Below the pieces are notes generated by a model that searched no databases, was not told the origin of the DNA, and saw only the letters and a list, made by a program, of their open reading frames with translations. A stretch of DNA of 64,000 nucleotides from a virus: the IMG/VR virus record IMGVR_UViG_3300040758_000047, positions 32,504 through 96,503 of that record; one strand, 5' to 3'. A program made the translations under genes and the position numbers. This document shows, piece by piece, positions 8,786 to 61,203 of this stretch (its first letter is position 1; every line of letters starts with the position of its first letter).

Positions 8786-8931
8786 ACTGCCCTTCCTAAG
8801 CCGTCCAACGTTGGACTAATTTAATGGTATTGCCTTGCACAATCACGGTCAAGCAATACCAAAAATAACGCCGCGCCCATCGGATCATTGACCCGACAGA
8901 CGCGGCGCTTTCCCTCTGCCGTGAGAGCCTG

Positions 8932-9390
8932 TTAGATGTATTCAAGCGTGACCGTGACGCCGCCTACCGGAGGCAACGCACCGGGAATTGACCAGCGCCA
9001 GCCGAGGCCGTCACCGACCGCCAATACAGTCAATACGGTCGAGTTGAACAGCGTGCCCTGCTGATAAACGTCCACCGCCGAGAAGTGAGATATGGTGGAA
9101 GCCAACACGTTCGCCGAAGACCCGAGTGGCGTTGAGCCAACCGCGTGAACCAGCATACCGGCGGTCGAACCCAGAACGCTGTGGCGCTCCGTCACCGCCA
9201 CCACTTGACACGGCGCATCGGCGGTAAAGATGTGATTGGTGATTGAGGTCTGGTAGGACGATCCAGCCGGGGAGCTTCCCGTCAATTGCCCCTGCCATGC
9301 GATTGTGTACGAGACCTGCGACGGAGTGACTGGGTTGTATGCTCCAGCCGGGTTGAACTGCGATCCGCTTTGATAAACGTTGGTAATCAT
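8932..9390 (-). CDS. putative structural/decoration protein
   Basis: Likely start MITNVYQ at 9390 after GAGAGGA; lies in the capsid operon. Confidence 0.55.
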   Translation of the reverse strand: MITNVYQSGSQFNPAGAYNPVTPSQVSYTIAWQGQLTGSSPAGSSYQTSITNHIFTADAPCQVVAVTERHSVLGSTAGMLVHAVGSTPLGSSANVLASTISHFSAVDVYQQGTLFNSTVLTVLAVGDGLGWRWSIPGALPPVGGVTVTLEYI

Positions 9391-9409
9391 AATCCTCTCT
9401 TGACCTCCA

Positions 9410-9958
9410 TTAACTGCTCGTCGGGGCCGGGCTTGAGCTAGTACTGGTGCTGGCATCTTCCACTTGCCACTGCGTTCCGTCCGACAGCAGCGTGACTGCC
9501 GATTCGTCCGAGTGGAAGGTGATCGTGGTGTGGGCGTTCCCGAGATTCTGCCCCGACTGGCAGACCACAGTTCCGTTGCCAGCACCCACTCTAGCGATCG
9601 TGATGGACTTGCCGACGAAAACCGTGGCATCGCACAGCGTTACTGCAAACGCGCTGGTTCCAGTCATGACGACATAATCGTCGGTGGCTCCGTTGACGGT
9701 GTACGCCGCCGAAACCGAGGTAGGCTTGGACACCCACGCAGCTATCTTCTGCCAAGCCCCGCCAGGGTAGGTCGTGCTGGGAGCGCTCACCAACTTGTAA
9801 ATAAGCGGCTGGCCAGCGGAGGCGGACGTGATCCAGATCAGGTCCCCGAGTTTGAGGTTCATCCCGGTCACGTCCGACGAAGCCGTAGGCAGCGTATTGG
9901 CGTAGAACATCTGCTGTTCGCTGGGAAGATAAGCCGGAGTCGCAATGAAAGACGGCAT
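9410..9958 (-). CDS. putative structural protein
   Basis: GGAGG RBS; C-terminal ESAVTLLSDGTQWQV fibre-like motif. Confidence 0.6.
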   Translation of the reverse strand: MPSFIATPAYLPSEQQMFYANTLPTASSDVTGMNLKLGDLIWITSASAGQPLIYKLVSAPSTTYPGGAWQKIAAWVSKPTSVSAAYTVNGATDDYVVMTGTSAFAVTLCDATVFVGKSITIARVGAGNGTVVCQSGQNLGNAHTTITFHSDESAVTLLSDGTQWQVEDASTSTSSSPAPTSS

Positions 9959-9967
9959 GAATCCTCC

Positions 9968-10492
9968 TTAGAGCACGCTCGAATTGAGCACGATGTTGTT
10001 GGCAACGTACTGTGACGGAGTCGTCACACGGAACATGGCGACGTCGATATTCAACACGCCAGCCGTGCAGTGAGCCAAGGTGTCACCTGTTGGCGTAAAG
10101 GTCACCTGGGGGGTGACCGCCGACAACTGACCCATCGGCTGTGCGAACGTCTCCTGGATGGTCGTGTCGGCCACCGCCTGGAACACATTGAACGGCTGAG
10201 TGAAGAAGTTGGTTGTCCCGCCCGACTTCCCTACACTGACCGTCATCCCAGTGAGCGAACCGCCGGTGAACGATGTCGAGTGCTTGACCCGCATGTAGAG
10301 CAGAAAACTGCCCTGCGGGAACGTCATCGCAGTGCTCGTGTTATACGGCGGCCCGCTCAGCGTGTTGTAGAGATTGAACGTGTACGCCACGCCGGAGCTG
10401 GTGCTCGTAGTCTGGAGGTCCAGATAGGTGAACTGGAAACTCCAAAACTGGATTGTGCCGCCGAGATTGCCTGCTAATCCTTGTTGTGTCAT
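9968..10492 (-). CDS. putative capsid decoration/cement protein
   Basis: Immediately downstream of the major capsid gene; beta-rich. Confidence 0.55.
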   Translation of the reverse strand: MTQQGLAGNLGGTIQFWSFQFTYLDLQTTSTSSGVAYTFNLYNTLSGPPYNTSTAMTFPQGSFLLYMRVKHSTSFTGGSLTGMTVSVGKSGGTTNFFTQPFNVFQAVADTTIQETFAQPMGQLSAVTPQVTFTPTGDTLAHCTAGVLNIDVAMFRVTTPSQYVANNIVLNSSVL

Positions 10493-10543
10493 TTACATGA
10501 TCCTCACTTCTTTTTCCTCTGCCACGCAACTCATTGAAAACAC

Positions 10544-14993: not shown

Positions 14994-15007
14994 GTCCCAC
15001 GTGGGAC
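14994..15007. promoter_or_regulatory. parS-like palindrome GTCCCACGTGGGAC (one of about 19 dispersed copies)
   Basis: Perfect copies also at 19291, 37392, 43106, 59489 and 61095. Confidence 0.8.
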
Positions 15008-17160: not shown

Positions 17161-17298
17161 AGAGGAGCCTCCTGCGCTTATCCTAAGCTATTTCTTTGGA
17201 TTCGGCAACGTTACCTACACTGTTCAGCCTACATCAAGTCCCACGTTGGGCCCATGTTCGCTTAAGGAGCATTCCATAATCTACCACCAAATGGCTAA

Positions 17299-19282: not shown

Positions 19283-19777
19283 CTACTCCTGTCCCACGTG
19301 GGACTCCTGAACTGGCCGTAAGGCCATCTCCAAGCTTTCTATTGCCGCCTTAGTTGCTGCGGCTACCTCGCACAGATCAGCAAGGCTTTCTCGTGGTATA
19401 TTAATTGATCGGAACTCAGCCAAACGGATGGCTGGATATATCTGACCAGTAAACGGTCCTTCGTGACCTCTCTTGAAGCCAGTGAACCCGTATTTAACAG
19501 TCCTGCCAAGGGTTCTATTGGCGATCATGCGCCTTACCAATTCATTAGCCGCTGGGATCAGGATAGAGTCTTCTTGTTTCCGACGAGCAGCCTCATTTTT
19601 ATCAATGAGGTAGAACTCAACGTCTATGGTCTTGCAGGAGGCTACCGCCTCAATATCCGCTCCTTCAAGGTTTTCAGTCGCACAGTCTGATCCGTACAAC
19701 GTTATGTGGCCTTCGTTCCTGCGAAGAAATTCAAGTGCGAGTAACCTGTATTTGTCCTTGTCGAGTTCGAACATCAC
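19283..19777 (-). CDS. hypothetical protein
   Basis: Coupled ORF in the operon. Confidence 0.55.
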   Translation of the reverse strand: MMFELDKDKYRLLALEFLRRNEGHITLYGSDCATENLEGADIEAVASCKTIDVEFYLIDKNEAARRKQEDSILIPAANELVRRMIANRTLGRTVKYGFTGFKRGHEGPFTGQIYPAIRLAEFRSINIPRESLADLCEVAAATKAAIESLEMALRPVQESHVGQE

Positions 19778-22640: not shown

Positions 22641-23144
22641 CTATTCCTCGACCGGCTTGGTCTTCTCGTACTCCACGGGGGTGGCAACCAGATCCACCAC
22701 TCTGCGAGCTGGTCCTAACTGGCGGGTTTCCTGTTCGTCAGCCAACATGCGGAAGATAGCGTCCGGTGTAGCCAGCCCCTTGGAACCTGAGGCGCTGATA
22801 TTGGCTGTCTGATTATTGTTGTTCTGTTGGACGTTGACAACCGTGCCCGCCTTGCCACCTTCTACTAAGCCGTACATCTGGGCCACAAGTCTCATCGCCG
22901 CCACATCTCCCGCTTCTACGCTAATCTCCAAGTTATGGAATAACTTAAATAGGTGCTTGATGGCGTGAAAGGCCTGGATTTTCCCTTGAATGGAACGGCT
23001 GGAGAGGTTCTTGGCGGTGACCTTGATGCCAGCGAATTTCTCGGGAATAACCAGTGGGGGAGCGGGGTTCAACGTGGGACTGCTGGCAACCTGCTTGATC
23101 TGGGTTGCGATGGGGGTCACTTTCGGCTTCTTTTTGTCCGCCAC
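22641..23144 (-). CDS. candidate terminase small subunit
   Basis: Position directly upstream of terL, size, and GDVAAMRL helical motif; inference only. Confidence 0.45.
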   Translation of the reverse strand: MADKKKPKVTPIATQIKQVASSPTLNPAPPLVIPEKFAGIKVTAKNLSSRSIQGKIQAFHAIKHLFKLFHNLEISVEAGDVAAMRLVAQMYGLVEGGKAGTVVNVQQNNNNQTANISASGSKGLATPDAIFRMLADEQETRQLGPARRVVDLVATPVEYEKTKPVEE

Positions 23145-23984: not shown

Positions 23985-24356
23985 TCACTCTGGCAACGCC
24001 TGGACCATTTCGCGCACGTCGCGCATACTAACGCCAGCAGCCAAGAGGTCGCGCGCACTGACGCCAGCAGCCAAGAGGGCGCGCGTACTGACGCCAGCGG
24101 CCAAGAGGTAGCGCGCACTAAAGCCAGCGACCCAGAGGGCGCGCGCACTGACGCCAGCGACCCAGAGGTCGCGCGTACTGACGCCAGCGGCCAAGAGGTC
24201 GCGCGCACTGACGCCAGCAGCCAAGAGGTCGCGCGCGATAACGCCAGCAGCCACGAGGTCGCGCGTACTAACGCCAGCAGCCCACTTTTCTTTGATGGCT
24301 GATATATCAGCTTCCAGTCGATCCAGTTCCTTCAATAACTCAGATTTCGTTTGCAT
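23985..24356 (-). CDS. 10-aa tandem-repeat protein (AAGVSxRDLx)9, copy A
   Basis: Nine 30-bp units; paralogue at 36929-37330. Confidence 0.75.
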   Translation of the reverse strand: MQTKSELLKELDRLEADISAIKEKWAAGVSTRDLVAAGVIARDLLAAGVSARDLLAAGVSTRDLWVAGVSARALWVAGFSARYLLAAGVSTRALLAAGVSARDLLAAGVSMRDVREMVQALPE

Positions 24357-24422: not shown

Positions 24423-25391
24423 CTAACCTCCTGGCCTGGGGGGAACCAGCCGTGAATTGGCCACACTCTGATCCCTCAAGGATGACTGCAAAATCGAATC
24501 CTCATGCTTAGAAGCTCTAGGGTCGGATATGGACCGAAAACCTTTTTGCATCTGCCCTTCTTGCTTTGTAAGCCGGTCGCCCATCGGAAGGTTGTCAGTG
24601 TCGAAATTTCCAATCTCCCTTAATGGAGGGGAATCACCGATCTCCGCCGGAGACATGTACTTCGGGCGGGGCTTGTACATTGCCTTCAATTGCTCCAGGA
24701 TTTCATCGAGCGCCGCGCTAATGTCCTGCTTTTCGTCGTAGACGCTGAAGGTCTTGCGAGCTACCAATAGGCCAAGAGATGTAGGCTGTCCTTCAACAGC
24801 TCCCCCGCCAGCACTATCCGACACGGCATCGTGCTTGTAGGTCAAATGAACCAGTCCCATCCCGGCCTGGTTGAGGACATTCTTGCGCGCCCGTAAAGTC
24901 AACTTTCCTTCCAGCCCCCTCGGCTCGAATTCGATGTAGTCCGGTGAATTATCGTTAATAAGAGCAATCAGATCCGACACGTCCCACTTAGGGTTTTCCG
25001 TTAGGTTTGATGGCCTTTTTCCTGTGACTGCCCGCCTGCGGACGGTTCCCGCCGTGAATACCTTACGCTTTATATCGGCGGGCTTATGCTCGTCGAATCC
25101 CGGATCTCCCGGCATTAAAATTACGCTCTTGGCCTCTCCGGGGTCCGTAGCAACGTCTTTATGGAGCACCACGGCTCCCAGTGGCGGGGGAGGGTGAACG
25201 TCCAACGTGGGACTCGGCACGCCCGGTGGAACCGTGGCAATACCGGATTCCTCCGTGTTCATGTCATAGAGCATTTCCACCGTGTCCACCACGTCCTCGG
25301 TGAGTAGAATAGAGTCCTGGGTCTTCTTCAGCCCACGGTCGAGGGTCTTCTGAATGTAGCGGGCGAACTTATCCTTGAGTGCTTGGTCCAT
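24423..25391 (-). CDS. hypothetical protein
   Basis: Likely start MDQALKDK at 25391. Confidence 0.6.
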   Translation of the reverse strand: MDQALKDKFARYIQKTLDRGLKKTQDSILLTEDVVDTVEMLYDMNTEESGIATVPPGVPSPTLDVHPPPPLGAVVLHKDVATDPGEAKSVILMPGDPGFDEHKPADIKRKVFTAGTVRRRAVTGKRPSNLTENPKWDVSDLIALINDNSPDYIEFEPRGLEGKLTLRARKNVLNQAGMGLVHLTYKHDAVSDSAGGGAVEGQPTSLGLLVARKTFSVYDEKQDISAALDEILEQLKAMYKPRPKYMSPAEIGDSPPLREIGNFDTDNLPMGDRLTKQEGQMQKGFRSISDPRASKHEDSILQSSLRDQSVANSRLVPPRPGG

Positions 25392-27400: not shown

Positions 27401-28219
27401 TCATCCCAACACCCCTACCTTCCCATCGCCTTCATACTTTAAGATGATCTCGTCTTCACTGATTTCCTTGACCACCACATTTGTTTCCAGTTGTACCCTG
27501 CCCGACTTCCCTACGACTTTAAGAGCGGCAATCATCCCCGGTTTTGCTGACCACTGCCACGCTGCCTTCGGCCCCTCCATCAACTTCACAACTTCGGCTT
27601 CGTCAACCACGTCGTTGGTCAAGTAGTCCTGAATTTGGCGCAAAATCATGGCTTTGGTGGGCCGATCGTCGGGCTCCTCGCGTTCGCGGGCCGTCACTCC
27701 CCTAGTCGAGGCTTCCCGCTTGGCCTTCCGTTCCGCCACTTTCTTTTTCTTGGCTTGCTTGGTTTCGCCTCTTCGAATCTCGCCGACCAACGATAAGGAG
27801 ACGCCAATGTACTTGGCGATCTGGGTGTCTTTCCACTCCCCAATCTTCTCGTCGGTTACCGCCAATTCAACGGCGCGTCTTTTGTCGGCATTGGTCAGCC
27901 GTGCGCCGTGATGGGAGTTTTCCAATAGGGCGTACTTCAGTGCATCGGAGGCGTCCCCATCGTGTATGACGGCGGGGATTTCCAGCTTGTTTTCCTGCCG
28001 GTAGGCTTCGATGCGATGGAAGCCGTCCGCGACACGGTAGGAGTTGTCTCCGTTACGGAAGATATGAATGGGGTCCATATTCCCGTGCTCCTGAATTAAG
28101 GAGCGGTACTGATGGACCAATCTGGCGTCGAGGGTGATGCGAATTTGGACGGAATTAGTTTCGTCAATTTGCTCGATGGGAACCAGCTTAACGGTTTTCT
28201 TGGTGGCAGAGGGTGTCAT
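27401..28219 (-). CDS. parB: ParB-family protein (ParB/Srx CTPase domain + HTH)
   Basis: DPIHIF, VADGFHRIEA (GxxRxxA), LLEN, and HTH DTQIAKYIGVSLSLVGEIRR. Confidence 0.82.
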   Translation of the reverse strand: MTPSATKKTVKLVPIEQIDETNSVQIRITLDARLVHQYRSLIQEHGNMDPIHIFRNGDNSYRVADGFHRIEAYRQENKLEIPAVIHDGDASDALKYALLENSHHGARLTNADKRRAVELAVTDEKIGEWKDTQIAKYIGVSLSLVGEIRRGETKQAKKKKVAERKAKREASTRGVTAREREEPDDRPTKAMILRQIQDYLTNDVVDEAEVVKLMEGPKAAWQWSAKPGMIAALKVVGKSGRVQLETNVVVKEISEDEIILKYEGDGKVGVLG

Positions 28220-28226
28220 TGTCTTT

Positions 28227-28240
28227 GTCCCACGTTGTAC
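28227..28240. promoter_or_regulatory. parS-like site immediately upstream of parB
   Basis: GTCCCACGTTGTAC, 7 nt before the parB ATG. Confidence 0.7.
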
Positions 28241-28591
28241 TCGATCTATAGGGTACGCGGAGTCAAGAGTGAAGTCAAGAGGTGTTTTAATACCTTCTCA
28301 AGACGTTTCCCTGGATCATCAGTTCAGCCTCCCGTAACACCACGAACCCATGGATTTGCTGAACTTCTTTTTTGGAGTATCCAGAAAGCAGCATGATCTT
28401 AGCCGCACGCACCCTGGACTCATAGACGGGGTTCGCAGGCTTCGGTCGGCGGTCCTCCACATCATCTTCAATTTGGTGGATCATATAAATGTCGGACATA
28501 GGATAAGATCGTTATCCAGAGCCAGAGCCATCGCAATAGCCATGGCCACCGCCATCGCCAGAGCCGTAATCCGGGTCGGAGTTTCACGGCC

Positions 28592-28924: not shown

Positions 28925-29007
28925 GTTCTACCTCCTGCCTCAGCACTTGCGCCAACGCTGGGACTTATATACATGATATAGATTGAGATTCAGGGAGTGT
29001 TTCAACA

Positions 29008-30114: not shown

Positions 30115-30137
30115 GTTTCAGCGCACAGGGGAGTCAA

Positions 30138-31035: not shown

Positions 31036-31492
31036 GATTGGTCCTCCTAGGAGCCTCGATCATCTTGAACTTGGTCTCGGTCAGCCATTGGTACAACGTG
31101 GTACCGGAAGCGTTGACCACACGGTAGGGCAAATACACCTCAGCGGCGGAAACCATCGAGGTTTGGATCATGGCGTTCTGCGCCTGCACCCACCTCAATA
31201 ATTGCCTCCAGGCAATTCGCTCGGCGTCGCGCATGGCTTTCTCGCGGAAGTCCGCACGGGGCCGCTTGGCTCTGGCTTCGAGCAGCCGGAAGACCGGCTC
31301 GATCCTGACCGGCATGTCGAACAGAACATCCTTCTCGCCGATGCGCATCACCCACCGCAGGCCGGAAACCCTGCCGTCTTTGTAATCCGTGTTGACCGCC
31401 GTTGCCCCGGAACTCACCAGTTCGCCCACAATCTCACTGACTGTCCGCTGAACGGAGACGCCGGTGGTTTCCATGAAAATCGCTTTGCTCAT
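31010..31492 (-). CDS. conserved phage protein
   Basis: AERIAWRQLLRWVQAQ...EVYLPY...TLY motif of a recurrent phage family. Confidence 0.65.
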   Translation of the reverse strand: MSKAIFMETTGVSVQRTVSEIVGELVSSGATAVNTDYKDGRVSGLRWVMRIGEKDVLFDMPVRIEPVFRLLEARAKRPRADFREKAMRDAERIAWRQLLRWVQAQNAMIQTSMVSAAEVYLPYRVVNASGTTLYQWLTETKFKMIEAPRRTNHEIDQNSD

Positions 31493-35331: not shown

Positions 35332-35404
35332 GTAGTCCCACGTTGGACCTGAGGAGCCACCTATACGGCGCGCTCCGATTGGCCTAACGGCTAGAAAGGG
35401 AAAT

Positions 35405-36108: not shown

Positions 36109-36314
36109 CGCGCGGCCGATGGCTTTGTAATGCTTCTGCCATTCCGACAGCGGCGCCGAGGTCCAGCTCAGGTTCTGCTGGCTCAGGTTCGCCGCCGCAA
36201 GGGCTAGGAATTTGCGGAACGAATCTAAACGCGCGTGGCGCGACTTGGGGATTACACGGCCTCGCTTGAGGCCGTAAGCAATCCAACGTGGGACTCAACA
36301 GGGAGAGGAACGTC

Positions 36315-37330: not shown

Positions 37331-37573
37331 AGGGCAAACTTGTACAATCAACTGTTTTTACCACACAGAAATAAAGTCGGTTTAACGGGTAGTCCCACGT
37401 GGGACTCTTGGCGAATCGGCCCGCCGCTAACCTTCAACCAGTGCGCGGCGGGCTAACCTAGGGGCTCGGGAGGCCCCGAAAAGGATGTTTAATGGGGTCT
37501 TTCTCCTTCCCCGAAGGGGAAGGACCTCAACCACAGAAACAAGTTCGTAGAAATTAGACTATTAGGAGAACTT

Positions 37574-38881: not shown

Positions 38882-39145
38882 ATGTATCCAATTTCAGACG
38901 CGACAGTACGAGGATGGCTTTACTTGAGTGATAGCTTTTGGGGCTCACTCACAGCCGAACAGCGCAAACAACTCAGGGATGAAGTGACAAACTGCCCGGA
39001 GTATTGCCCAAACACGAAAACTCACATCCACATCCCAGACAAACGGTCGCTCCGTATCGACGATGCTTTCGTTAACGTAGACTGCTCCGCGTGTGGCCGG
39101 ACGGGATGCGCGGGAAAATTCGATCCTGAAAAGATCGACTGGTAG
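38882..39145 (+). CDS. Cys-containing hypothetical protein
   Basis: GGAGG RBS. Confidence 0.55.
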   Translation: MYPISDATVRGWLYLSDSFWGSLTAEQRKQLRDEVTNCPEYCPNTKTHIHIPDKRSLRIDDAFVNVDCSACGRTGCAGKFDPEKIDW

Positions 39146-39244
39146 TCCCACGTTGTACTATTTATCCAGACGGTGAAAAGGGGATGTTCCATTGTCCCAA
39201 GTGCTCCCCGTTCTGGTTGGAGAAATTTCTCATTTGGCGCATGA

Positions 39245-39736: not shown

Positions 39737-39761
39737 CTCTAGGTTGGAATGGCTTTATACT
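39733..39761 (+). promoter_or_regulatory. sigma70 promoter
   Basis: TTGACT-N17-TATACT. Confidence 0.7.
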
Positions 39762-39781
39762 CACCGAGGAGAAACAGATTT

Positions 39782-41754: not shown

Positions 41755-42448
41755 GCATCGACATCACTACGTTTGTGGACCCCACAGACCCCGATTTCGC
41801 AGAAATCCGAGGGATGGCTATCGCTGGTTTCTCCTTGGACGAAATGAGGGCAATGTGGAGGCTGAAACATAGCAAGAGAAAGGTAGTGTCCCAAAACGGG
41901 GCTGATCCCAAGACTTTTTCTCTTGACCAAACCAAACAAGAAAGGAATAGTCGTGAGAACGATTAATACCACAACACTACACGAAGCTCAGGAACCGCGT
42001 CACGCCCCGTTCGAGCGGGGGCGCATGTATAGCATGCTGGATTTGCTAGGAGGGGGCACCGCTACCTGCGATGACTGCCACCGCTGGCAGCGATTTTCAT
42101 CGCTTGACCCCCGACGTTCGCTCGCACAAACAGGATGGACATTCGAAGGCGGTAAAGATCTTTGTCCTGTATGCTCACCCAAGCGTAACCAAACCGAAAG
42201 GGAGAAAGGAGCGCCTTAAATGCAACACAACATCGATTGCTCTCCAGCGGTTGCTGGAGAGGCAGCCGGATCTCGCCGGAGAGTTTCAGGCGATACGCCA
42301 AGGTTTAAAGACCGGAGAAGTAGCGCGGCAACACGAGATCCAACTCGGTTTGCTTGATGGGATAATCGCGCAACTTCGCGGTACTTAGATGCGTCTTGCA
42401 TTTTGGCACACTCCAATGCATTATTGAATTGCGCCAAGATTCTAGTGA

Positions 42449-42474
42449 GGCCCCGGTGCCAGCCGGGGCTTTTG
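42449..42474 (+). terminator. intrinsic terminator
   Basis: GGCCCCGG-TGCCAG-CCGGGGCT followed by TTTT. Confidence 0.55.
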
Positions 42475-42516
42475 CATTTATGCTATCTTAACCTCGGTTG
42501 TGAAGAAAGGGCCGAA

Positions 42517-43008
42517 ATGGAATTATCCCCATCAATGAGAGATTTGGTTGACCGCCTAGTGGAGCAGCAGCGGGCGTCCAATGCCGATTTGTCGCTTCAG
42601 AATCGGGTCATGCTGGAGCACGCAAGAATCGCCGAAGAGAACAACGATTTCCTGTGGCGTGCGATCATTGCCGAGATGCGCGCTCTCATCACGAAGTACA
42701 ACGGGACGTTTCGGAACCAATTCTACCTCACGCCCGAAGATCCAGAGGGCGAGAAGTCCGTTATGGTAAGCTGCTCGGTATTCCCGCTGGCGAGCCTCAC
42801 CCTTTCCCGGCCATCCCCACATTTCTTCGAGTTCTCTATTGACCGAACTCAGGGGTCTTTTGCTCCCCGCAAGGGCACGAATGGTCGTATTGACGTTAAG
42901 CCGGACTCTAACCGCAACGTCCCCATGGTGGCCCAAGACGGGACCCCGCTCCCAACACCCCTCGACGTAGCCGAATACCTGCTTGAGCCTCTTTTCCGTC
43001 CCCGCTAA
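42517..43008 (+). CDS. hypothetical protein (moron-like)
   Basis: Likely start MELSPSM at 42517. Confidence 0.55.
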   Translation: MELSPSMRDLVDRLVEQQRASNADLSLQNRVMLEHARIAEENNDFLWRAIIAEMRALITKYNGTFRNQFYLTPEDPEGEKSVMVSCSVFPLASLTLSRPSPHFFEFSIDRTQGSFAPRKGTNGRIDVKPDSNRNVPMVAQDGTPLPTPLDVAEYLLEPLFRPR

Positions 43009-43062
43009 ACGATCAACGGCAGATTTAGGACACTACCACTCATGCGGTAGAAGAAAAAACTC

Positions 43063-43119
43063 TTGACTTGAGTCAAGAGAAGAACTATACTCACAAACGG
43101 AAGAAGTCCCACGTGGGAC
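43063..43119 (+). promoter_or_regulatory. sigma70 promoter followed by a perfect parS-like palindrome
   Basis: TTGACT-N17-TATACT (the -35 lies in the palindrome TCTTGACT..AGTCAAGA), then GTCCCACGTGGGAC at 43106. Confidence 0.7.
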
Positions 43120-43328
43120 AAGAAGGAGAAAACACAAATGAACTGGCCCAGTAAGCTGTTTGCGGTTCGCCGCCGATTCAAGGGGTTGGGACCGTCTCCC
43201 ACGGTCGTGTTCTGCGAAGAAAGCGCCTTGCGGCGCGGTGATATCGCCGTCGAGTATACATTGAACACCGATCCATTCTTGGTGGATTTAACGGTCGTCA
43301 GAAACGACATCCCGGAAGGAGAAGAGAA

Positions 43329-47316: not shown

Positions 47317-47621
47317 TGGAATACTCACGCGAGGGGAGCCTGCCCGAAAATACAGGTGCCCGCTGCCGGTACTGCCATGGCGACCACAACAAGGAGACCA
47401 TTCTGTGCGACCGCGAGGCTTATCTGCGTCTGCGTGCGGTGGAGGCGCTCGAAGATATCGCAGAATACCTCCGTTCACTTTTCGAGTCCCACGTGGGATA
47501 ACCCATGCCCTACCTCTACTACCGGCTCCTTTTCGGGCTCGCGGTGTTCGGTGAAGCTCGGGCTGTCATTGTTAGGGGAATTGATATAATTCCCATTGTT
47601 AGGCTGCGGGGGATCGGGTAG

Positions 47622-49424
47622 ATGCCTCTCCGCCCCTACCAGACTCAGTGCCTAGCCGACATCCAAGAGAACCTTCACCAGGGGATCTCCAGACAATTAG
47701 TCGTGATGGCAACGGGGCTGGGCAAGACCGTGGTCGCGGCCCATATTCCCGAAATGGTTGAACTACGCAGGCAGAGAAAGCGCGGCCTCTTCCTTGTCCA
47801 TCGCAATGAACTTTGTGAGCAGGCCGCGCGCAAATTCCATCAGTACAATCCCCATCTGAAGGTCGCTATTGAACGTGCCGACTATCGGGCTGAAGATGCC
47901 GACATCGTAGTGGCTTCTGTTCAGACACTCGGTAAGGCCGAGTATGAAGGGGCGGAAAACGAAGGCTACTGGAAGTATGGTGACCGGCTGACTCAGTTCG
48001 ATCCCGACCAGTTCAGCTTTCTGATAGTTGACGAGTGCCATCATGCCAGTGCCGTGAGTTACCAGTCTGTCTTCCGTTACTTCCGTGTGCTGAAAGGCGA
48101 GGCTGACTGCGACCCATCGAAGCTATTCATTGGGATCACCGCCACACCAAACAGAAGCGACAACATCGGCTTGGAAGTCCTATTCGACCGCATAAGTTAC
48201 AACTACGGAATCGCGGAGGGGATCACGGATGGATGGCTGACGCGGATCATCGCTCATCGAATCGAGACAGAGCATGACATCAGCCAGGTCCACATAACGC
48301 ATGGAGACTTCAACCAAGCCGAGTTAGAGGCGGCAGTCAACACCCCCGCACGAAATGAACTCATCGCTCGTGAATACTGCAAACATAAGCCAGAAGGGCC
48401 AGCTTTCTTCTTCACCGTGGACATAAAACATGCTGTTGACTTAGCAGAGGTTATGCGGGCACACGGCGTTAAAGTCTACCCGATCAGCGGTCACACTCCA
48501 GAATTAGAGTGTAAGCGGTTCATGCGGCTAATTAACGAAGGCGAGATCGACGGCCTAGCTTCTGCGGGGAAACTCATTGAGGGCATCGACGCCCCGCGTG
48601 TGATGACGGCGGCTATGTGTGTGCCGACGAAATCCAAACTCCGTTTCCAGCAGATGGCCGGGAGAGTTGTCAGGCCCTTCCCGGCACCCGAGGACAAAGA
48701 GTCCCACGTGGGATGGGTTAAGCCACATGCTTTGATCCTTGACTTTTGCGATCTGAGCGGCAGACATTCTCTGGTCACGATCGCTTCTCTCTTCGGTCTA
48801 CGGGCTAAGTTCGATGCCAAGGGCGGCGACGTTCTTCAGCAGGCCCGCGCTATTGAAGAACTCGAAGCCCAAAACCCCGGTTTAGACTTCCGTGACGAAC
48901 CGGATCTGGAGTCCGCCAGAGCCAAAGCTGACAAGTTCAAGACCTCTCGTCACCTGGTAGACCTTTTGAAGCCTCCCGAGTGCCCCGAGGAACTCCGCAA
49001 ACTAAGCCGATTTACATGGCTGAAAGAGACTGAGGGATCTTACCACCTTGGCCTGATGAACAACAGTATGCTTTCGATCCGCGAGAACGGATTAGGGCAT
49101 TGTGAAGTTTACCGCCATGTTCGGGGGATCAGAACCAAACTGTACGTAGCCAAAGACCTAAAAGAAGCAGTGGAAATGGCCGAACATGAGGTTCCAGGAG
49201 AAGATCGAAAAATTATGGCGGCGACAGCCGCCTGGAGAAAAGAACCGCCAACTGGAGCCCAAGCGAGGCTGCTGTTTGTGTTGGACCGGAAGCTCAAACG
49301 GGAGTTCCGGGACCCTGGTCAATTACATACCTTCCTTCTACAGCGCTTCACGGCTGGAGATATCTCCCAGAGCCGAGGAGGTGTGAGCGCTAGAATCGAT
49401 TCTCTCCGTGCCGCTCGCTCCTAA
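47622..49424 (+). CDS. superfamily 2 DEAD/DEAH-box helicase
   Basis: LRPYQ, ATGLGKT, DECHH, TATPNR, EGIDAP, QMAGR. Confidence 0.92.
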   Translation: MPLRPYQTQCLADIQENLHQGISRQLVVMATGLGKTVVAAHIPEMVELRRQRKRGLFLVHRNELCEQAARKFHQYNPHLKVAIERADYRAEDADIVVASVQTLGKAEYEGAENEGYWKYGDRLTQFDPDQFSFLIVDECHHASAVSYQSVFRYFRVLKGEADCDPSKLFIGITATPNRSDNIGLEVLFDRISYNYGIAEGITDGWLTRIIAHRIETEHDISQVHITHGDFNQAELEAAVNTPARNELIAREYCKHKPEGPAFFFTVDIKHAVDLAEVMRAHGVKVYPISGHTPELECKRFMRLINEGEIDGLASAGKLIEGIDAPRVMTAAMCVPTKSKLRFQQMAGRVVRPFPAPEDKESHVGWVKPHALILDFCDLSGRHSLVTIASLFGLRAKFDAKGGDVLQQARAIEELEAQNPGLDFRDEPDLESARAKADKFKTSRHLVDLLKPPECPEELRKLSRFTWLKETEGSYHLGLMNNSMLSIRENGLGHCEVYRHVRGIRTKLYVAKDLKEAVEMAEHEVPGEDRKIMAATAAWRKEPPTGAQARLLFVLDRKLKREFRDPGQLHTFLLQRFTAGDISQSRGGVSARIDSLRAARS

Positions 49425-49538: not shown

Positions 49539-49907
49539 ATGAACACTGAAAAACACGATCTTGCACACTACATGGCGCTGCCATATACGAAACTACTTCG
49601 TCCCGATACGGACGGCGACATCGTTGCAAGAATTGTAGAACTGCCTGGGTGCTCTGCTCATGGAGAGAACGCAGAAGAGGCGCTAGAGAATCTTCAGGAG
49701 GCACAGCGCCTGTGGCTGGAGGACTGCATCGAGGCAGGCGATCCTGTACCTGAGCCAGAAAAGGAGGATCCCCTTCCGAGCGGAAAGTGGGTTCAGCGTG
49801 TACCGCGCAGTTTGCATCAGCGTCTCGTCAGGGCAGCAAACTCTGAGCGCGTCAGTCTCAATCAGCTTGTGACATCAATGCTGTCCGAGAGGATCAGCTT
49901 ACGGTAG
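49539..49907 (+). CDS. hicB: HicB-family antitoxin (orphan)
   Basis: ELPGCSAHGE..EEAL...SGKWVQRVPRSLHQRL...VSLNQL. Confidence 0.88.
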   Translation: MNTEKHDLAHYMALPYTKLLRPDTDGDIVARIVELPGCSAHGENAEEALENLQEAQRLWLEDCIEAGDPVPEPEKEDPLPSGKWVQRVPRSLHQRLVRAANSERVSLNQLVTSMLSERISLR

Positions 49908-51011: not shown

Positions 51012-51089
51012 CTCCTAAAGCCCACGGCAGAGATGCGCGCCCTACAACTTCAATCTTATCATGGGTCTCTTACCCAGTACAACGTGGGA

Positions 51090-51446
51090 CTAGAGTACCA
51101 CAAACTCCCAATCAATTTGCCCGTTGTCCACCATTCCCAACAGACTCCAGACCTTCTCCCCGAGGTCGATCCCGGCTCCATTGGTCGGACGCCCCGTCAT
51201 GTCAGTTCCACTCTCTGCTTGCGGGCGCTGGCCATCAAAGACATAGGCGTCATCGTTGATATTCCATGGACCGACATCAAGGACAATCGCCAGGGAGGAC
51301 TTGGTGTTTAGGGGATTAGTCAACTGGATGAAGCAACCGAGGGCTTTGGTGGATGGAAGTGCCACGAAGGGGACAACAGTGTCGATCACGTAGCCGCTGG
51401 CTGTGCGCTGTCCCACTAACCCTTCGCGGGTAGCTTTGACAATCAC
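51090..51446 (-). CDS. RlpA-like double-psi beta-barrel protein, putative endolysin
   Basis: TASG, VALP, VLDVGPW and GIDL motifs. Confidence 0.65.
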   Translation of the reverse strand: MIVKATREGLVGQRTASGYVIDTVVPFVALPSTKALGCFIQLTNPLNTKSSLAIVLDVGPWNINDDAYVFDGQRPQAESGTDMTGRPTNGAGIDLGEKVWSLLGMVDNGQIDWEFVVL

Positions 51447-51833: not shown

Positions 51834-53648
51834 CTAGGACACCTGAGAGATCAGCCAGACATCCGTACATAGATTTGCGTCGAGGATGTAGGCGTAGGGA
51901 ATCGAGGCGTACCCTCGCTTGCCCCAAGCCGTTCCCCACGAGTTCTGCATGATGAAGCTCTGCGGCGGAATGTCGGCCAAGCCATTGTCCGTGTAGCCTA
52001 CCAGACGCACGCAATGCCCCCCTAATTGGTTCTCGCTCGCTCCTGGCATAGGTACGTCGCCGCTCGCCGCCACGGCATCCGACTCGAACGAATCGTACAC
52101 TAAGATACCGATCACCAGCCCGTGCGCTGGATCGGTTCGCACCGCGCGGGCTAGTGATGTAGTCGAGTTGCCATAGGCCAGAGCCGTCTTCAGATCCGTC
52201 AAGTCCTGATTGACACTCTGCGCGCCCAACGCAAGGAACTGCAAGGCGTCGGCATAGCACTTGTCCGGCGGCTGGACGGCAAACTGCGAAATGTCGTAAG
52301 GCCACTCCGTCTCAGAGCAAGCGCCTTGAGTTTGTACGGCAGCGATACCGTCTGGGATTGTAGCCCCAGCGTCTTGCGGGACGGTCCCCTCGATCACGCG
52401 GCTGCAATAATACACAAAAAGACGACTCCGCATTGTGAGCGGTTCTCCTTGAGCCAAAGCCTGAGCCTCCAGTTCTTCGCAGGTTCCATTGGCAGTGCAA
52501 GAGTTCCCGGAGATCAGTATAGAACCACTGCGCCTAGTAATCAGTATGGAATTGGGGACGGAGGCGCAGAACACTTCGCCCTTGTAATAATCGGGTTTGA
52601 ACGTCTCCCGCGGTTTTAGGTTGAGATGATCGGTTTCCCATTGAGTCAGGTATCGTTCAGACGAACGAGAAACAATCGGAACACCGTCATTCCGCACGGC
52701 TGGCGCCCTAAGTTCAGCCCTATAAATTGAGGATCGATTACCACATTTGAGCAGCAGTTCCTGCAAGTCATCGATCATCCCATCGCTCGTGCTAAAAAAC
52801 TGATGCGGGCGCTTCCCGGTGTGGGTTTGGTCACCAAAAAATGATAGAAACAGTTTGATTTGGCGTTGTGATGCAAAGCGGATAATCCCCGGCACTCTTT
52901 TGGCTGATGCCGATCTGCCATTGCATCCACACGACTCACGGAACCAGTTAGCCAACTCAGCACTGAAGAACGTCCATTTACGCGGAGCGCTCTCGTAAAT
53001 GCCCAATCGCTGCGCCAACGAAGCGATGATGTTATACCGCCCGTCGTTGAAGCAGCAGAATCCGCCAACCCTATTCTCTTTGGCTTCGGAATCGGAAATC
53101 CATCCATCTGAGATAACCAGCGCGGCAAGGGATATCAGATCATCCCCACTCAGTTCGTATTTGCCGATCCGAAGGCCCCTCAAGTCTATTCCGGTCCATC
53201 CTCGCGGAGCAGCCAAAAGGCCCGCGATGGAAGGGATGCTATCGGCAGTCTCAAATCCGAAACCTGCACTTTTGCGAGGGCGAATGTACATGCGGTGATT
53301 CGGCGTTACCGCGCAATCGAGTGAACGATGGTCGGCAAAATACATCGGGCCTTCATAGACGTACCGAAAAAGGGCGGTCGGGTGCTGATACTCAAATGCA
53401 TGGGTTAACGGATTTACTGTGGCAAGAGAATCGTGCCCATCGTATGCGTTCCACGGCTTCCATCCGCTCTCTGTGAGCACTTCGGTTTTATCATCATGGC
53501 ATCCAAGCGAGCCCTGATCGACTACCGGAGGTTGCAAATTCCGCATGTCGAGGTCTTGAGGCAGCGTGAAGTGCGGAGCGTCGAAGACTCGGTACCGCGC
53601 CTTTTTAGCGCTCGGTGTGGGGATGCAGCCGTAAATGTGCTTTGACAT
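51834..53648 (-). CDS. papain-family (C1) cysteine peptidase interrupted by an intein
   Basis: DQGSLG|SCTAN, SRLFVYY, GGHCVRLVGY, QNSWGTAWG..GY; start at 53648. Confidence 0.88.
   Translation of the reverse strand: MSKHIYGCIPTPSAKKARYRVFDAPHFTLPQDLDMRNLQPPVVDQGSLGCHDDKTEVLTESGWKPWNAYDGHDSLATVNPLTHAFEYQHPTALFRYVYEGPMYFADHRSLDCAVTPNHRMYIRPRKSAGFGFETADSIPSIAGLLAAPRGWTGIDLRGLRIGKYELSGDDLISLAALVISDGWISDSEAKENRVGGFCCFNDGRYNIIASLAQRLGIYESAPRKWTFFSAELANWFRESCGCNGRSASAKRVPGIIRFASQRQIKLFLSFFGDQTHTGKRPHQFFSTSDGMIDDLQELLLKCGNRSSIYRAELRAPAVRNDGVPIVSRSSERYLTQWETDHLNLKPRETFKPDYYKGEVFCASVPNSILITRRSGSILISGNSCTANGTCEELEAQALAQGEPLTMRSRLFVYYCSRVIEGTVPQDAGATIPDGIAAVQTQGACSETEWPYDISQFAVQPPDKCYADALQFLALGAQSVNQDLTDLKTALAYGNSTTSLARAVRTDPAHGLVIGILVYDSFESDAVAASGDVPMPGASENQLGGHCVRLVGYTDNGLADIPPQSFIMQNSWGTAWGKRGYASIPYAYILDANLCTDVWLISQVS
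52503..53501 (-). mobile_element. intein (333 aa) with LAGLIDADG-type endonuclease region
   Basis: Begins CHDDKTEVLTESGWK; block B VTPNHRM; LAALVISDG; ends VFCASVPN...ISGN followed by Ser(+1). Confidence 0.9.
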
Positions 53649-53649
53649 T

Positions 53650-54405
53650 TCAGGACTTCTCCGTCCTTGCATGAGGCAGGAAGTACCGTATGCCAGGCGT
53701 ATCGGGGATCGGAATCGACGACGTTAGCTGCAAAGTGTTGATCGCTATCGGTTTCGCTGGCAATAACATCCTGAGCTTCGCCGCTTTCTTCGCAGCCCGG
53801 CTACCGGGTCTTGGCTGGCGGTCGGTGTACTCATACGTGGTCACGCCAGCGCCCGGCATTACGGTCACGGTTGGGAATGGAACCGATGTGGTAGGAGCGA
53901 ACACGGACTGGAGCGTAATCGCCGGGTTAGGCGCTTGCTTCTGAAATACTGCGCTTATCGCAGGTAGTTCCTGGGCCACGCCAGCGGATGCGTCTGCGAC
54001 GATAAGACCGGCTCTCTCCGATATGGTGCCAATCAATCCGGCGCTCGCGCCTACGGGGATGGCGAGGTTTGCGGCAAACACGGTAATGGTGGCCACTTTA
54101 GCCAACAGCGACTTATTAGCCGCGCCCTGTAGGTTGAGTTGCGCGGCATTGGGCGCGATCAGGTGCAGGTTATCGGGAGCCGGAAGAGCCCTGACCGCGT
54201 GCGACATTTGAATGAAGGACGTCGTGCAGGGGACGGTTGACCAAATATCCACCTCTACGGGCGTCATATTATGGGCGGCAGGGATGAAGTCCGTCACCGT
54301 CCCCTGCGGGAGCACGGTCACTTGCACGGAAATACTAGCGCAGGGCGGCGGCACTTGCGCGATAGCGACCGCCGCCAACGTTAGGATAACCAGAAAGACT
54401 TTCAT
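53650..54405 (-). CDS. signal-peptide protein
   Basis: MKVFLVILTLAAVAIA-Q. Confidence 0.65.
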   Translation of the reverse strand: MKVFLVILTLAAVAIAQVPPPCASISVQVTVLPQGTVTDFIPAAHNMTPVEVDIWSTVPCTTSFIQMSHAVRALPAPDNLHLIAPNAAQLNLQGAANKSLLAKVATITVFAANLAIPVGASAGLIGTISERAGLIVADASAGVAQELPAISAVFQKQAPNPAITLQSVFAPTTSVPFPTVTVMPGAGVTTYEYTDRQPRPGSRAAKKAAKLRMLLPAKPIAINTLQLTSSIPIPDTPGIRYFLPHARTEKS

Positions 54406-58605: not shown

Positions 58606-58618
58606 CGTAATTCTCCTT

Positions 58619-58951
58619 CTAGTTACAAAATGTAGTCCTCACCGGGGGCGCACACTTCGGGTACAGCGGCGAAGTGATTGTTAACGTCCCGTCGATTCTA
58701 GCCGTGATCGAGTTCCAGTTGATGTTGTCCTTCGTAAAACAGATTGCCGTGTTTGAGCCGCCGCTCCCGCTCGCTCCCGCCGTGGGACAGACATTGGAAG
58801 TGCTTGCCCCTGTCCAAACATAGAGTACGTTCGGCAAAGCTTCGGTGGCAGTCGGAAGAGTGCTTCCGACAATAGGCTGGTTTGGTGCGGGAAAGAGTTG
58901 GGCGTATCCCAATGCGGCCAACCCGAATAAGAGCACAAGTAGCTTCTTCAT
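58619..58951 (-). CDS. signal-peptide protein
   Basis: MKKLLVLLFGLAALGYA-Q. Confidence 0.65.
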   Translation of the reverse strand: MKKLLVLLFGLAALGYAQLFPAPNQPIVGSTLPTATEALPNVLYVWTGASTSNVCPTAGASGSGGSNTAICFTKDNINWNSITARIDGTLTITSPLYPKCAPPVRTTFCN

Positions 58952-58958
58952 GGCGTCC

Positions 58959-59369
58959 TCACATGATGACGATCATGACGTTCACATAGCACGTCGCCGC
59001 GCTGGCCTGGACGTACACTGCGCTTAGCGGGATTGCCATCCCTTCCCGATACAGGTATTGCGCTTGTCCAGCGCTCATCTTCAGGCCGTACCTTGTTAGG
59101 CTGAGATTTGAGTCGCCGACCATAACGTAGTTCCCTGCATTATTCTGGTCGGCTTGGATTTGGAGGGTGGCAACGTTTTGAAGGATCCCCCCACCCGTCG
59201 TAGTTGGGCTCAGCGTGGAATCTACGGCGATCAGCAATGGTAGAAGCTGGTGAGGGTTTGTGTCGCTGAGGGTGACCTGGATTCCGTAAAAAGCATTAAG
59301 CGCCACGAGGGTAGCCCCTTCTCCCTCACGGCAGTTCAGGAGTCCCACGTTGGACTGTTGTCGGGCCAC
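58959..59369 (-). CDS. small beta-sandwich protein
   Basis: LQIQADQNNAGNYVMVGDS; similar class to 8429-8785. Confidence 0.55.
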   Translation of the reverse strand: MARQQSNVGLLNCREGEGATLVALNAFYGIQVTLSDTNPHQLLPLLIAVDSTLSPTTTGGGILQNVATLQIQADQNNAGNYVMVGDSNLSLTRYGLKMSAGQAQYLYREGMAIPLSAVYVQASAATCYVNVMIVIM

Positions 59370-59967
59370 CCGCCACTCCCGACTAGGCTGGTGGCCCTTG
59401 CCTTATGGGTGCCTTACATCAAGTTTATCCTATCTCGTTCAAAGCAGGGAGTCAAGGGTCTTTAGTCTGGGCGCTTAATCGCTAAGCTGTCCCACGTGGG
59501 ACTATGCAGCCTGCCGAAGCCGCTCATCCGATTGGATAACCGGAAAGACTTTATTGCATAGTGGACAAACCACTTCAGTGGACACACCGAGAATTTGCTC
59601 TTTGAGGATTATGACTTCCTCGGCATCGAACCCGGCTTTCCAGAACAATTGGTCGTCCATGGGTGACCCACACTTTTGAGTGTACACCAAAAACGGCTAT
59701 TGACATAAAGAAAAGATGGGGCTACCGTCAAACTGTTCACGTTTCTCCGGCCAGAGAACGTGATCGCGGCAAAGACAAACGGGCAGGGAGTTCGGGCTAA
59801 TCCTCAGTCTAGCCTGAAAACCACGCCCGGCTCCCTCGTTTGTTTTGAGGGCTAGACGAAAGTCAACAGCGTCTTTAGTAGGGGCGGAAGAAAGTAGAGG
59901 ATCAGTGTGCCCAAAATAGGCGAGCGATTTAACCCGCCGGAGAATTTAGATCCTAACTGAGATTTGT

Positions 59968-61203
59968 ATGCCTAGATTCAAGAAACCAGGGTACACACAG
60001 ATCCCAAATGAAATCTTGGATGATCTAATGCCTTCTCTCACGGGCGCTCAACTGAAAGTTCTCTTGCTTATTTCCCGAAAGACTCTCGGTTTCCATCGCG
60101 ATTGCCATGCGATGAGTTTATCCGCGATCCGCTCTGGCACCGGACTATCGGAAAACGGCGTTCTGGAATCAGTTAGATCACTTGAGGATTCTGGTTTTAT
60201 TGTGGCGGAAAAGAGATTTATGGGGGACGGGATGCGACCCAGAGCTACCGAGTACTACCTAGGCATTGAGGATGATGACCAACACCTCACTGAGTGCGGT
60301 GTTGCCAATACTTCACAGGTAGATTCAATACCTCAACCAGTGAGGGATTCAATACCTCAACCAGTGAGGGATTCAATACCTCAACCAGTGAGGGATGTTA
60401 ATAAGGAGTCTAAAGAAACAAGTAAAGAAAATAGCAAGACAACCACTCTGGAACTTCTTGATCCGGTAGACCTCTCTGACCCCGTAGAGGACTTCGTCAA
60501 AAATGCGTACTCCCGAGAAAACAGGGCGGCGAAAATCGACAATCTAAGATCCAAGGCGTCGGCTTCCTTACGGGAACAGTTACATTCAGCCGAATCCAAC
60601 GTTGGGCCTGAGGAATTTCGCCAGTCGCTGGTCAAATATCTTCATTCTGAGTCTCCTTGGCTTCGTGAGCACAGATGGCCGCTATACGCATTCCTTAAGA
60701 CACAGGACACATCGCGTAATAACGGGCGATCCAAGGTCAGGACACCCCAAACTACCACCCCGACCCCACCGAAGCAGCCAGCGGTCTGTAATGCGCAGGA
60801 AACGGCATTTCCTGACGAGGCCAAAACGTGGAATCGGATCGTAGAGCACGGCACTAAAGTCGAGTTGTTTGATTGGAACATGGAGGAAGGGGAATTTCTT
60901 AACAGATGCCGTTCCTATGAAGATTTCGGACCTTCATGGGAGAAAATTTGCGGGAAGATCGAGGCCATCCTGCAATCAGAGAATCCAAAAGCGCAGTTTT
61001 TATCGACGTTTCACTGGATTATCAAAGAGCGCAAGAATTGGTGGAAGGTACTGAACGGGACCTACGATACTTTGATCCAAAGGCCGAACGGAAAGTCCCA
61101 CGTGGGACACGACCCGAACGCGGTAGTCGATGAGGCCCTAAGGATCATACGAGGTAAGCGCCGTGAGACTGGAACGCCGCGAGAAGACCAAACCCCTGGA
61201 TAA
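59968..61203 (+). CDS. phage replication initiator (lambda O-like N-terminal wHTH)
   Basis: GYTQIPNEILD...LKVLLLISRKTLGF...TGLS; internal iterons; upstream of dnaB. Confidence 0.8.
   Translation: MPRFKKPGYTQIPNEILDDLMPSLTGAQLKVLLLISRKTLGFHRDCHAMSLSAIRSGTGLSENGVLESVRSLEDSGFIVAEKRFMGDGMRPRATEYYLGIEDDDQHLTECGVANTSQVDSIPQPVRDSIPQPVRDSIPQPVRDVNKESKETSKENSKTTTLELLDPVDLSDPVEDFVKNAYSRENRAAKIDNLRSKASASLREQLHSAESNVGPEEFRQSLVKYLHSESPWLREHRWPLYAFLKTQDTSRNNGRSKVRTPQTTTPTPPKQPAVCNAQETAFPDEAKTWNRIVEHGTKVELFDWNMEEGEFLNRCRSYEDFGPSWEKICGKIEAILQSENPKAQFLSTFHWIIKERKNWWKVLNGTYDTLIQRPNGKSHVGHDPNAVVDEALRIIRGKRRETGTPREDQTPG
60322..60393 (+). repeat. three exact 24-bp iterons, probable replication origin
   Basis: GATTCAATACCTCAACCAGTGAGG x3, each with the internal inverted repeat CCTCA/TGAGG, followed by an A-rich tract. 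Confidence 0.8.

Follow-up and report, generated by a model that had tools for sequence, protein, structure and literature searches.

The stretch analysed here, hereafter the window, is 64,000 nucleotides of DNA (G000:C1:32504-96503) from the complete virus record IMGVR_UViG_3300040758_000047 (G000), a 96,503-bp soil phage genome with direct terminal repeats and a G+C content of 54.8%. On the minus strand of the window, at 27401..28219, lies an orphan gene for a ParB-like protein of 272 amino acids (aa), in which a ParB_N fold is followed by a helix-turn-helix, a Lys-rich linker and a conserved C-terminal domain. A parS-like palindrome of 14 bases is scattered over the same genome, and we propose that it is probably the binding site of this protein. 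The palindrome itself is real and genome-wide. Six perfect copies of GTCCCACGTGGGAC had been reported in the original prediction, and all six are present, at 14994, 19291, 37392, 43106, 59489 and 61095, where 100 shuffles gave an expectation of 0; the 96.5-kb genome contains seven. At up to two mismatches to GTCCCACGTGGGAC the window holds 18 sites, with 0.20 expected, and these include every variant that had been listed with the exception of the weak site at 31091..31104, which has three mismatches (GTACAACGTGGTAC). When GTCCMAYRTKGGAC was allowed at most one mismatch, 27 sites were found genome-wide as compared to 0.1-0.2 in shuffles, and the half-site CGTGGGAC is the commonest 8-mer of the whole genome. 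The core is preferentially preceded by A and followed by T, which extends it to a palindrome of 16 bp; beyond this flank no sequence is conserved within 45 nt on either side. The 27 sites are dispersed over 96.5 kb at intervals of 0.15-9.6 kb, or about one per 3.5 kb, with no centromere-like cluster. The core of chromosomal parS is GTT(T/C)CACGTG(A/G)AAC, from which the 14-bp phage core differs by one or two bases per half-site.

The sites are concentrated at gene boundaries. On a crude map of the longest open reading frames (ORFs), 18 of the 27 lie within 40 bp of an ORF boundary, as compared to 16% of random points (P=7e-9). Typically a stop codon is followed by the site, then by 10-30 nt that contain a ribosome-binding site, and then by a start codon; the stop codon is often TAG, its G doubling as the first base of the site. 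Contacts with stop codons had been predicted at three places and were indeed found at each: GTCCCACGTTGGAC at 35335..35348 begins 4 nt past a stop codon, the first G of GTCCCACGTTGTAC at 39145..39158 is the final base of a TAG stop, and GTACAACGTGGGAC at 51077..51090 abuts a stop codon between two minus-strand genes. Similarly, the perfect site at 59489..59502 abuts a stop codon, while those at 14994..15007 and 37392..37405 are intergenic, the former past the stop of a 79-aa ORF, and that at 19291..19304 occupies the junction of a 164-aa and a 152-aa gene. GTCCCACGTTGGGC at 17238..17251 is found between an upstream gene and the start of the portal gene, ATCCAACGTGGGAC at 36281..36294 lies 21 nt ahead of an ATG that has a ribosome-binding site, and GTCCCACGTGGGAT at 47486..47499 sits in the divergent intergenic region ahead of the helicase gene. 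Other sites fall inside genes, for example GTTCAACGTGGGAC at 23067..23080 (codon 21 of a 167-aa gene upstream of the large terminase), GTCCAACGTGGGAC at 25200..25213 (within a 352-aa gene) and GTCCCACGTTGGAC at 59342..59355 (codons 4-9 of a 136-aa ORF). In-frame sites had been said to imprint the peptide SHVG on several proteins. This was confirmed for the helicase (48701..48714, again GTCCCACGTGGGAT), the RepO-like initiator (the perfect site at 61095..61108), the gene of 164 aa (at 19291) and, beyond the window, a gene of 1348 aa; SHVG or SNVG is the peptide of this frame. The remaining intragenic sites are read in the other two frames (VQRGT, PTLD). Because intragenic sites thus occur in all three frames, the constraint acts on the DNA.

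Three of the 27 sites begin 8-15 nt past the -10 element of a match to TTGACN-N17-TANNNT, and these precede a tail-fibre operon, the recombination module and parB itself, whose -10 is weak. Two had been placed correctly before. The GTCCCACGTTGTAC at 28227..28240 ends 8 nt ahead of the parB ATG, beside a possible sigma-70-type parB promoter on the minus strand (28250..28278, TTGACT-17-TACCCT) that matched in the pattern scan and failed a stricter one. The perfect site at 43106..43119 begins 15 nt past the -10 of a plus-strand sigma-70-type promoter ahead of the recombination module (43063..43091, TTGACT-17-TATACT, 10/12), which passed both scans, and it ends 19 nt ahead of the ATG at 43138. The third, GTCCAACGTTGGAC at 8803..8816, lies in a gene gap, 8 nt past a promoter-like match on the minus strand (TTGACC-17-TACCAT, 8824-8852). 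The possible parB promoter would head an operon that continues into the terminase and portal genes. The majority of sites have no promoter nearby: with spacers of 16-18 nt allowed, again 3 of the 27 lie within 20 nt past a TTGACN-N16-18-TANNNT match, and such matches are not more frequent than in shuffles. We therefore rejected the idea that the motif is a promoter element.

The form of the variation is equally informative. Across the G000 sites the central ACGT is invariant, and arm positions 3 and 5 vary (C/A) independently in each half-site; the asymmetric variant GTCCCACGTTGTAC, for example, is present five times. Relative to transcription, the asymmetric variants are divided 9 versus 8 and thus show no orientation bias. 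One-sided arm changes would break a 5-bp stem, which together with the absent orientation bias fits a symmetric dimer on duplex DNA.

The 272-aa protein is the proposed reader of these sites. Its ParB_N domain is recognised by Pfam (PF02195, 2e-8, 34.6 bits against a cut-off of 26.3), and PHROG returned a ParB-like match at 4.6e-18. It belongs to a family with 18 full-length relatives of 39-61% identity, whose N-terminal domain carries ADGFHRI and ENGHHGAxMTNAxKR and whose helix-turn-helix follows the pattern IAxxIGCSxSLVxxxRRGE (IA..IGVS.SLV...RRG being conserved). The family profile matches ParB of M. xanthus, Noc and ParB of C. crescentus in the PDB, with alignments that run through the helix-turn-helix to residue ~149. 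When the AlphaFold model (AF2, pLDDT 77) was compared by Foldseek, CTP-bound ParB, Noc and KorB ranked best (E 3e-8 to 7bnk, 6sdk, 7nfu and 8qa8). Profiles and model both place the predicted helix-turn-helix directly after the N-terminal domain, with helices at 131-138 and 142-150 in a domain shorter than that of chromosomal ParB. The C-terminal domain (residues ~187-272, pLDDT 56-80) is conserved and consists of two helices followed by strands. The N-terminus is MTPSATKKTVK, in which an amphipathic helix like that of Noc is not obvious. The earlier statement that the window encodes no ParA could be extended to the complete genome, where no match to PF13614 or PF01656 was found by a search that detected its positive controls in 14 of 14 genomes; nor does the complete genome encode a tyrosine integrase.

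A test of whether motif and ParB co-occur in related phages had been suggested. Direct searches returned little: megablast of 20 kb against GenBank phages gave no match, tblastn of ParB gave two remote matches, and single-protein scans of viral and metagenome contigs gave none. Relatives were recovered by alignment-based scans. The generic ParB_N model was not sensitive enough for the family (E 0.02 for G001 and no match for G004), so family profiles were applied to six-frame ORFs. Indeed, contigs with a full-length homologue carry the same motif family. The complete 94.6-kb genome G001, with a ParB 42% identical to that of G000, has 29 copies of GTCCAAC(A/G)TTGGAC, mostly GTCCAACATTGGAC, the fragments G002, G003 and G005 have 9-11 motif copies each, and the motif family was also found in five metagenome contigs. 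A more divergent ParB, matched by the profile only to position 232, is encoded by the 83-kb G004, which has 21 copies of GTCCG(G/A)AT(T/C)CGGAC (GTCCGRATYCGGAC). The homologue in G003 (L068:9932-11043) is apparently split by a frameshift into a 248-aa ORF and, in another frame, a 160-aa ORF that would contain the C-terminal domain. In another group of viral fragments (L029, L042 and L048), two or three perfect copies of GTCCCACGTGGGAC lie ~0.8 kb apart, each just ahead of a ribosome-binding site and start codon; the available pieces (13-34% complete) hold no ParB.

To compare positions, G000 sites were mapped to the relatives through flanking homologous genes, with a chance of coincidence of ~0.08 per site. 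Coincident sites were found for four of six mapped G000 sites in G002, for 4 of 19 in G001 (two at 0-3 bp) and for 3 of 16 in G004 (one at 0 bp). For example, the site at 14994 has orthologues in G001 and G002, that at 19291 in G002 at 0 bp, that at 23067 in G001 at 3 bp and that at 25200 in G002 at 6 bp. The helicase site at 48701 is matched in G001 at 0 bp, where it reads GTCCAACGTTGGAC and the encoded peptide is altered along with the motif. Orthologous sites have thus been rewritten to the variant of each lineage, as expected if sites co-evolve with one trans-acting reader. The site ahead of the parB ATG is kept in five relatives, among them G002, L053, L060 and L054, where it lies at a distance of 16-56 nt, as compared to 8 nt in G000; its conservation at the start of parB fits autoregulation.

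The association extends to unrelated phages. A profile search returned 12,916 clusters at E<=1e-10, which makes this a large subfamily. Distant members were found by an alignment-based scan in 68 viral loci, at 28-37% identity across the N-terminal domain and helix-turn-helix, and the loci were chosen solely for the presence of such a member. A locus was counted as array-bearing if one 14-bp palindrome occurred in it three or more times at dispersed positions, with G+C-rich low-complexity sequence excluded; 17 of the 68 loci qualified, whereas no array was seen in any of the 48 viral loci used as controls (Fisher P=4e-5). The 17 are not all independent and represent about seven motif classes. 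These classes (TGGAAACGTTTCCA, TGGCAACGTTGCCA, TGGTAACGTTACCA, CCATAACGTTATGG, TTATAACGTTATAA, GAAACGGCCGTTTC and GTGCTGCGCAGCAC, plus 15-bp forms) are mostly AACGTT-centred. For example, the complete genome G013 (59,960 bp, terminal repeats) has 23 perfect copies of TGGAAACGTTTCCA, and two 27-kb fragments have 18-19 copies of TGGCAACGTTGCCA each. ParB is the sole G000 protein with a tblastn match in G013 and the sole family common to 11 representative loci. The G013 sites use all frames, and 10 of the 23 are near ORF boundaries. In the TGGC phages the sites are mostly intragenic, which argues for selection on site number over promoter position, and in distant clades a site lies within parB itself. 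When the N-terminal domain and helix-turn-helix were placed in a tree, each ParB clade had a single motif. The sister clades TGGA and TGGC (64% identical, with SHAYI and SHTYI in their respective recognition helices) differ by one symmetric base pair, and the recognition helix covaries with the base preceding AACGTT: all three classes with T at this position have a VS(H/Q)PFV.K(M/L)R helix, and classes without an ACGT centre have markedly different recognition helices. At L076:9197-9349, four 15-bp palindromes of the TGTAACAATGTGACA type follow directly on the ParB match, exactly 46 bp apart, an array that is classically centromere-like and unlike the dispersed ones.

Co-occurrence, concerted change, recurrence in unrelated phages and the single motif per clade together link the motif to the ParB-like gene. 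We therefore read aGTCC(C/A)ACGT(G/T)GGACt as the duplex site predicted to be bound by the orphan ParB/Noc/KorB-like protein that the phage itself encodes, with ~30 sites in the genome and one at the start of its own gene, and on the comparative evidence we judge this reading to be probable. A dimer would bind through its helix-turn-helix, with one half-site per monomer. Most sites are lodged in the short stretch that separates a stop codon from the following ribosome-binding site, and some are forced into coding sequence in any frame. Given the three sites found a little downstream of sigma-70-like promoters, a KorB-like mode of working is the most likely, in which the protein would repress its own gene and, from its many sites acting as loading points or operators, control or organise the phage chromosome; a nucleotide switch or spreading from the sites may be part of it.

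Several observations weigh against assigning the motif to this ParB. A GxxRxxA CTPase motif had been ascribed to the protein. Box II does align, as G-F-H-R-I-E-A, but only the second of the three arginines of GERRxRA is kept; GFHRIEA is thus not the canonical motif, although ADGFHR is conserved across the subfamily. The region of Box III (ENLQR) reads LLENSHHG here, LANC/KNNC in close relatives and GAN..HG in the wider subfamily; the Asn is kept and the Glu and Arg are not, the glutamate not being conserved in the wider subfamily. With one Box II arginine kept and the Box III glutamate not conserved in the subfamily, 'CTPase' is not established as a description. Binding of CTP, ATP or GTP has been reported for ParB folds (10.1101/2025.10.10.680097). 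Also to be counted here, about 50 of the 68 distant ParB loci have no array in the stretch examined, the recognition helix of L059 is rather different although its motif is the same as that of its relatives, and small proteins that bind DNA but have diverged beyond the reach of tblastn could accompany the sites unnoticed. One weak helix-turn-helix candidate, encoded at 35863-36108, has a weak Sigma70_r4_2/HTH_23 match.

The most direct counter-example is G006 (96 kb, 96% complete), whose large terminase is 40% identical to that of G000. Family and wider subfamily profiles (E<=1) found no ParB family member in it, hhalign revealed no hidden ParB in the three genes upstream of its terminase, and Pfam on 20 of its proteins returned a Sigma70_r4 protein and methyltransferases and no ParB. 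Nevertheless, the palindrome GTCTG(N)AT(N)CAGAC (GTCTGNATNCAGAC) occurs 16 times in G006 (loci L159-L163, e.g. L159:16721 and L160:6370), with enrichment at ORF boundaries, and fragments of its clade share it. Relatives that keep the motif without parB had been named in the original prediction as the finding that would count against it. A ParB-less clade with dispersed palindromes does exist, but its motif is another sequence, with neither an ACGT nor an AATT centre, and its positions are not orthologous (none of nine mappable G000 sites and none of eight G004 sites). Because of this non-orthology the G006 sites look like a separate system, and we read them as a separate, analogous array. G006 thus lowers confidence in the ParB assignment without overturning it, since such arrays can evidently exist without this ParB. 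The Sigma70_r4 protein of G006 (L159:14694-15503) and two methyltransferases are encoded upstream of the terminase.

G006 is also an argument that another dimeric DNA-binding protein of the phage, a small repressor or activator not recognisable from its sequence, reads the palindrome, with ParB either unrelated or a partner as in KorA/KorB. In keeping with this, most of the conserved non-structural proteins match no family, and a scan of ~70 window proteins for another conserved DNA-binding protein returned the 35863-36108 candidate and a HicB-type protein (49539-49907) and nothing else. We nevertheless consider such a reader rather unlikely: ParB alone is common to the unrelated array-bearing phages, motif classes track the ParB tree, and the G006 palindromes do not fall at sites of the ParB-bearing relatives. 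The reader might instead belong to the host, as a global regulator or host ParB that the phage plugs into or titrates, and exact copies of GTCCCACGTGGGAC are indeed over-represented in some bacterial metagenome-assembled genomes (MAGs), where ~0.03 would be expected. A Vulcanimicrobiota MAG, G023 (L177, L211), has 20 perfect copies, often paired 36-44 bp apart, and several Myxococcota MAGs (L195, L172, L180, L202) have 4-5 each; at L195, four sites are crowded into 150 bp of the gap that separates an NTP-transferase gene from a TlyA-like gene. An unpublished genome, G027, has five copies and is used for no claim here. This distribution looks like the regulon of a bacterial factor. The bacterial copies are neither beside parAB nor on the contig bearing the chromosomal parB, and host parS was rejected as an identity for them. 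Moreover, these MAGs are 64-75% G+C and the phage is 55%, each related phage has its own variant, changed in concert, and the link to a phage-encoded ParB subfamily persists across unrelated backbones, which together make a host factor improbable.

Two further explanations dispense with a conventional operator. If the motif marked targets of a sequence-specific DNA modification or nicking system, precedents would not be lacking: phage ParB-like proteins activate 5mYOX thymine dioxygenases (PMC13229309), and ParB-methyltransferase fusions are common in phages (10.1101/2025.10.10.680097), with one such fusion (P0024) among the distant homologues here. A specificity of 14-16 bp, however, far exceeds that of known modification motifs, and enrichment at gene boundaries would not be expected of one. 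The 5mYOX-associated ParBs have no DNA-binding domain (PMC13229309), whereas the phage protein has a helix-turn-helix, and the ~70 window proteins scanned include no dioxygenase or DNA methyltransferase. We regard this explanation as very improbable. Scarcely more credible, and if anything less so, is that the palindrome serves as a hairpin, whether as a cruciform in DNA or, in RNA, as a stem-loop between cistrons that signals termination, processing or translation. The position of many sites between a stop codon and the following ribosome-binding site would suit such a signal, and G001, G004 and G006 do vary in the central four bases, the would-be loop. In G000, however, this centre is fixed, and the arms commonly change on one side only, to the detriment of the 5-bp stem; no flank is conserved, no T-run follows the sites, and none of 17 terminator-like hits in the 16.5 kb scanned (27500-44000) overlaps a site. 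Sites within genes and in divergent promoter regions fit a hairpin poorly as well.

If the sites are, as we favour, read by the orphan ParB-like protein, the closest known parallel is KorB of RK2, a ParB-family CTP clamp that acts as a global repressor through dispersed palindromic OB operators (PMC11790492, PMC13584720). Both proteins combine a ParB fold with a helix-turn-helix, and in both cases about a dozen or more palindromes are dispersed across a mobile element of 60-100 kb, partly at promoters and partly distant from any, with regulation of the protein's own operon (for the phage, proposed). Unlike the phage protein with its GFHRIEA, KorB has GERRxRA and the partners IncC/ParA, KorA and TrbA; the phage has no ParA and no recognisable KorA-like partner, its protein has a C-terminal domain family of its own, and the element is a phage, seemingly not temperate, with ~30 sites. 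Chromosomal ParB-parS is similar in the shared GT..CACGTG..AC of the site, in fold and in domain order. It differs in having few sites, clustered near the origin, together with ParA, whereas the phage sites are dispersed at ~1/3.5 kb, and no ParA-binding N-terminal motif was seen in the phage protein. Of the hallmarks of a ParABS system, the phage shows a site at the parB locus and neither ParA nor centromere-like clustering. Noc is a membrane-binding protein that blocks division, its anchor being an N-terminal amphipathic helix. The Noc/NBS system of B. subtilis (7nfu, 7ol9) resembles that of the phage as an orphan ParB paralogue without ParA that has many scattered 14-bp palindromes, and Noc is among the best structural and sequence matches; the difference is that MTPSATKKTVK forms no obvious amphipathic helix.

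Among phages, Cluster O mycobacteriophages (Corndog) carry a 17-bp dyad in over 30 copies, its function unexplained, and encode a ParB-like gp90; the authors drew no link between the two (PMC4351075). As here, one palindrome occurs throughout a genome (~70 kb), many copies are intergenic and not tied to promoters, and there is no integrase; the dyad, however, is TGTTCGG-N3-CCGAACA and gp90 has 502 aa. Corndog gp90 was rejected as a member of the subfamily, with an hhalign probability of 12% and only weak ParB_N resemblance. The stoperators of Cluster A are similarly ~30 short sites in small gene gaps that one phage protein binds (PMC4351075). Stoperators lack symmetry, point along the direction of transcription and serve the immunity repressor of a temperate phage as binding sites, whereas the sites described here are palindromic, lack a preferred orientation and occur in a phage without a tyrosine integrase. 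The 5mYOX activators are likewise orphan phage ParB folds with an N-terminal nucleotide-binding and a C-terminal domain and a use other than segregation; they act with a neighbouring 5mYOX, and none was found near the phage gene. A 2025 survey of ParB folds describes many orphan phage homologues with mostly unknown roles (10.1101/2025.10.10.680097), and the word stem 'palindrom' is absent from its main text. None of six 14-mers was found in the literature searched, and within a limited literature search we found no description of an orphan phage ParB paired with dispersed palindromes.

The pairing would join two separate puzzles, the jobs of orphan phage ParB folds (10.1101/2025.10.10.680097) and the unexplained genome-wide palindromes of phages (PMC4351075), and would give a large ParB subfamily candidate cognate sites. 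Since the clades provide ready-made shifts in specificity, sometimes of a single base pair, how ParB-type helices read DNA and what a ParA-less ParB does in a virus become directly testable. If the protein spreads from its ~30 sites, it would offer a simple model of whole-genome coating by a clamp. More tentatively, and on balance we doubt it, the orphan subfamily may constitute an undescribed and widespread viral chromatin, loading at tens of lineage-specific palindromes every 2-4 kb to cover or organise the whole phage chromosome. Such a chromatin could mark the chromosome as self and control transcription, packaging or protection from host nucleases or silencers, and the Cluster O dyads and the ParB-less G006 array would then be parallel solutions to the same need.

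Other features of the window touch on these subjects less directly. A TnpB-type gene (29008-30114, minus strand) with OrfB_IS605 and Cas12f1-like TNB domains lies 0.8 kb from parB; a copy 39% identical is present in G006 and none in G001. The HicB-type protein is encoded by a gene that resembles those of HicB-family antitoxins (Pfam 2.7e-9), and no HicA is obvious next to it. At 51834-53672 (minus strand) a 612-aa protein is encoded with a C-terminal papain-family peptidase domain; its N-terminal part has weak matches to PHROGs annotated as thymidylate synthase or ribonucleotide reductase. Finally, tandem arrays of a 30-bp repeat, mutually inverted, are found within two small genes, at 24029-24300 and 37033-37290, and the repeat array at 36929-37330 matches the Pfam 'Decapeptide repeat region' at 1.2e-20.

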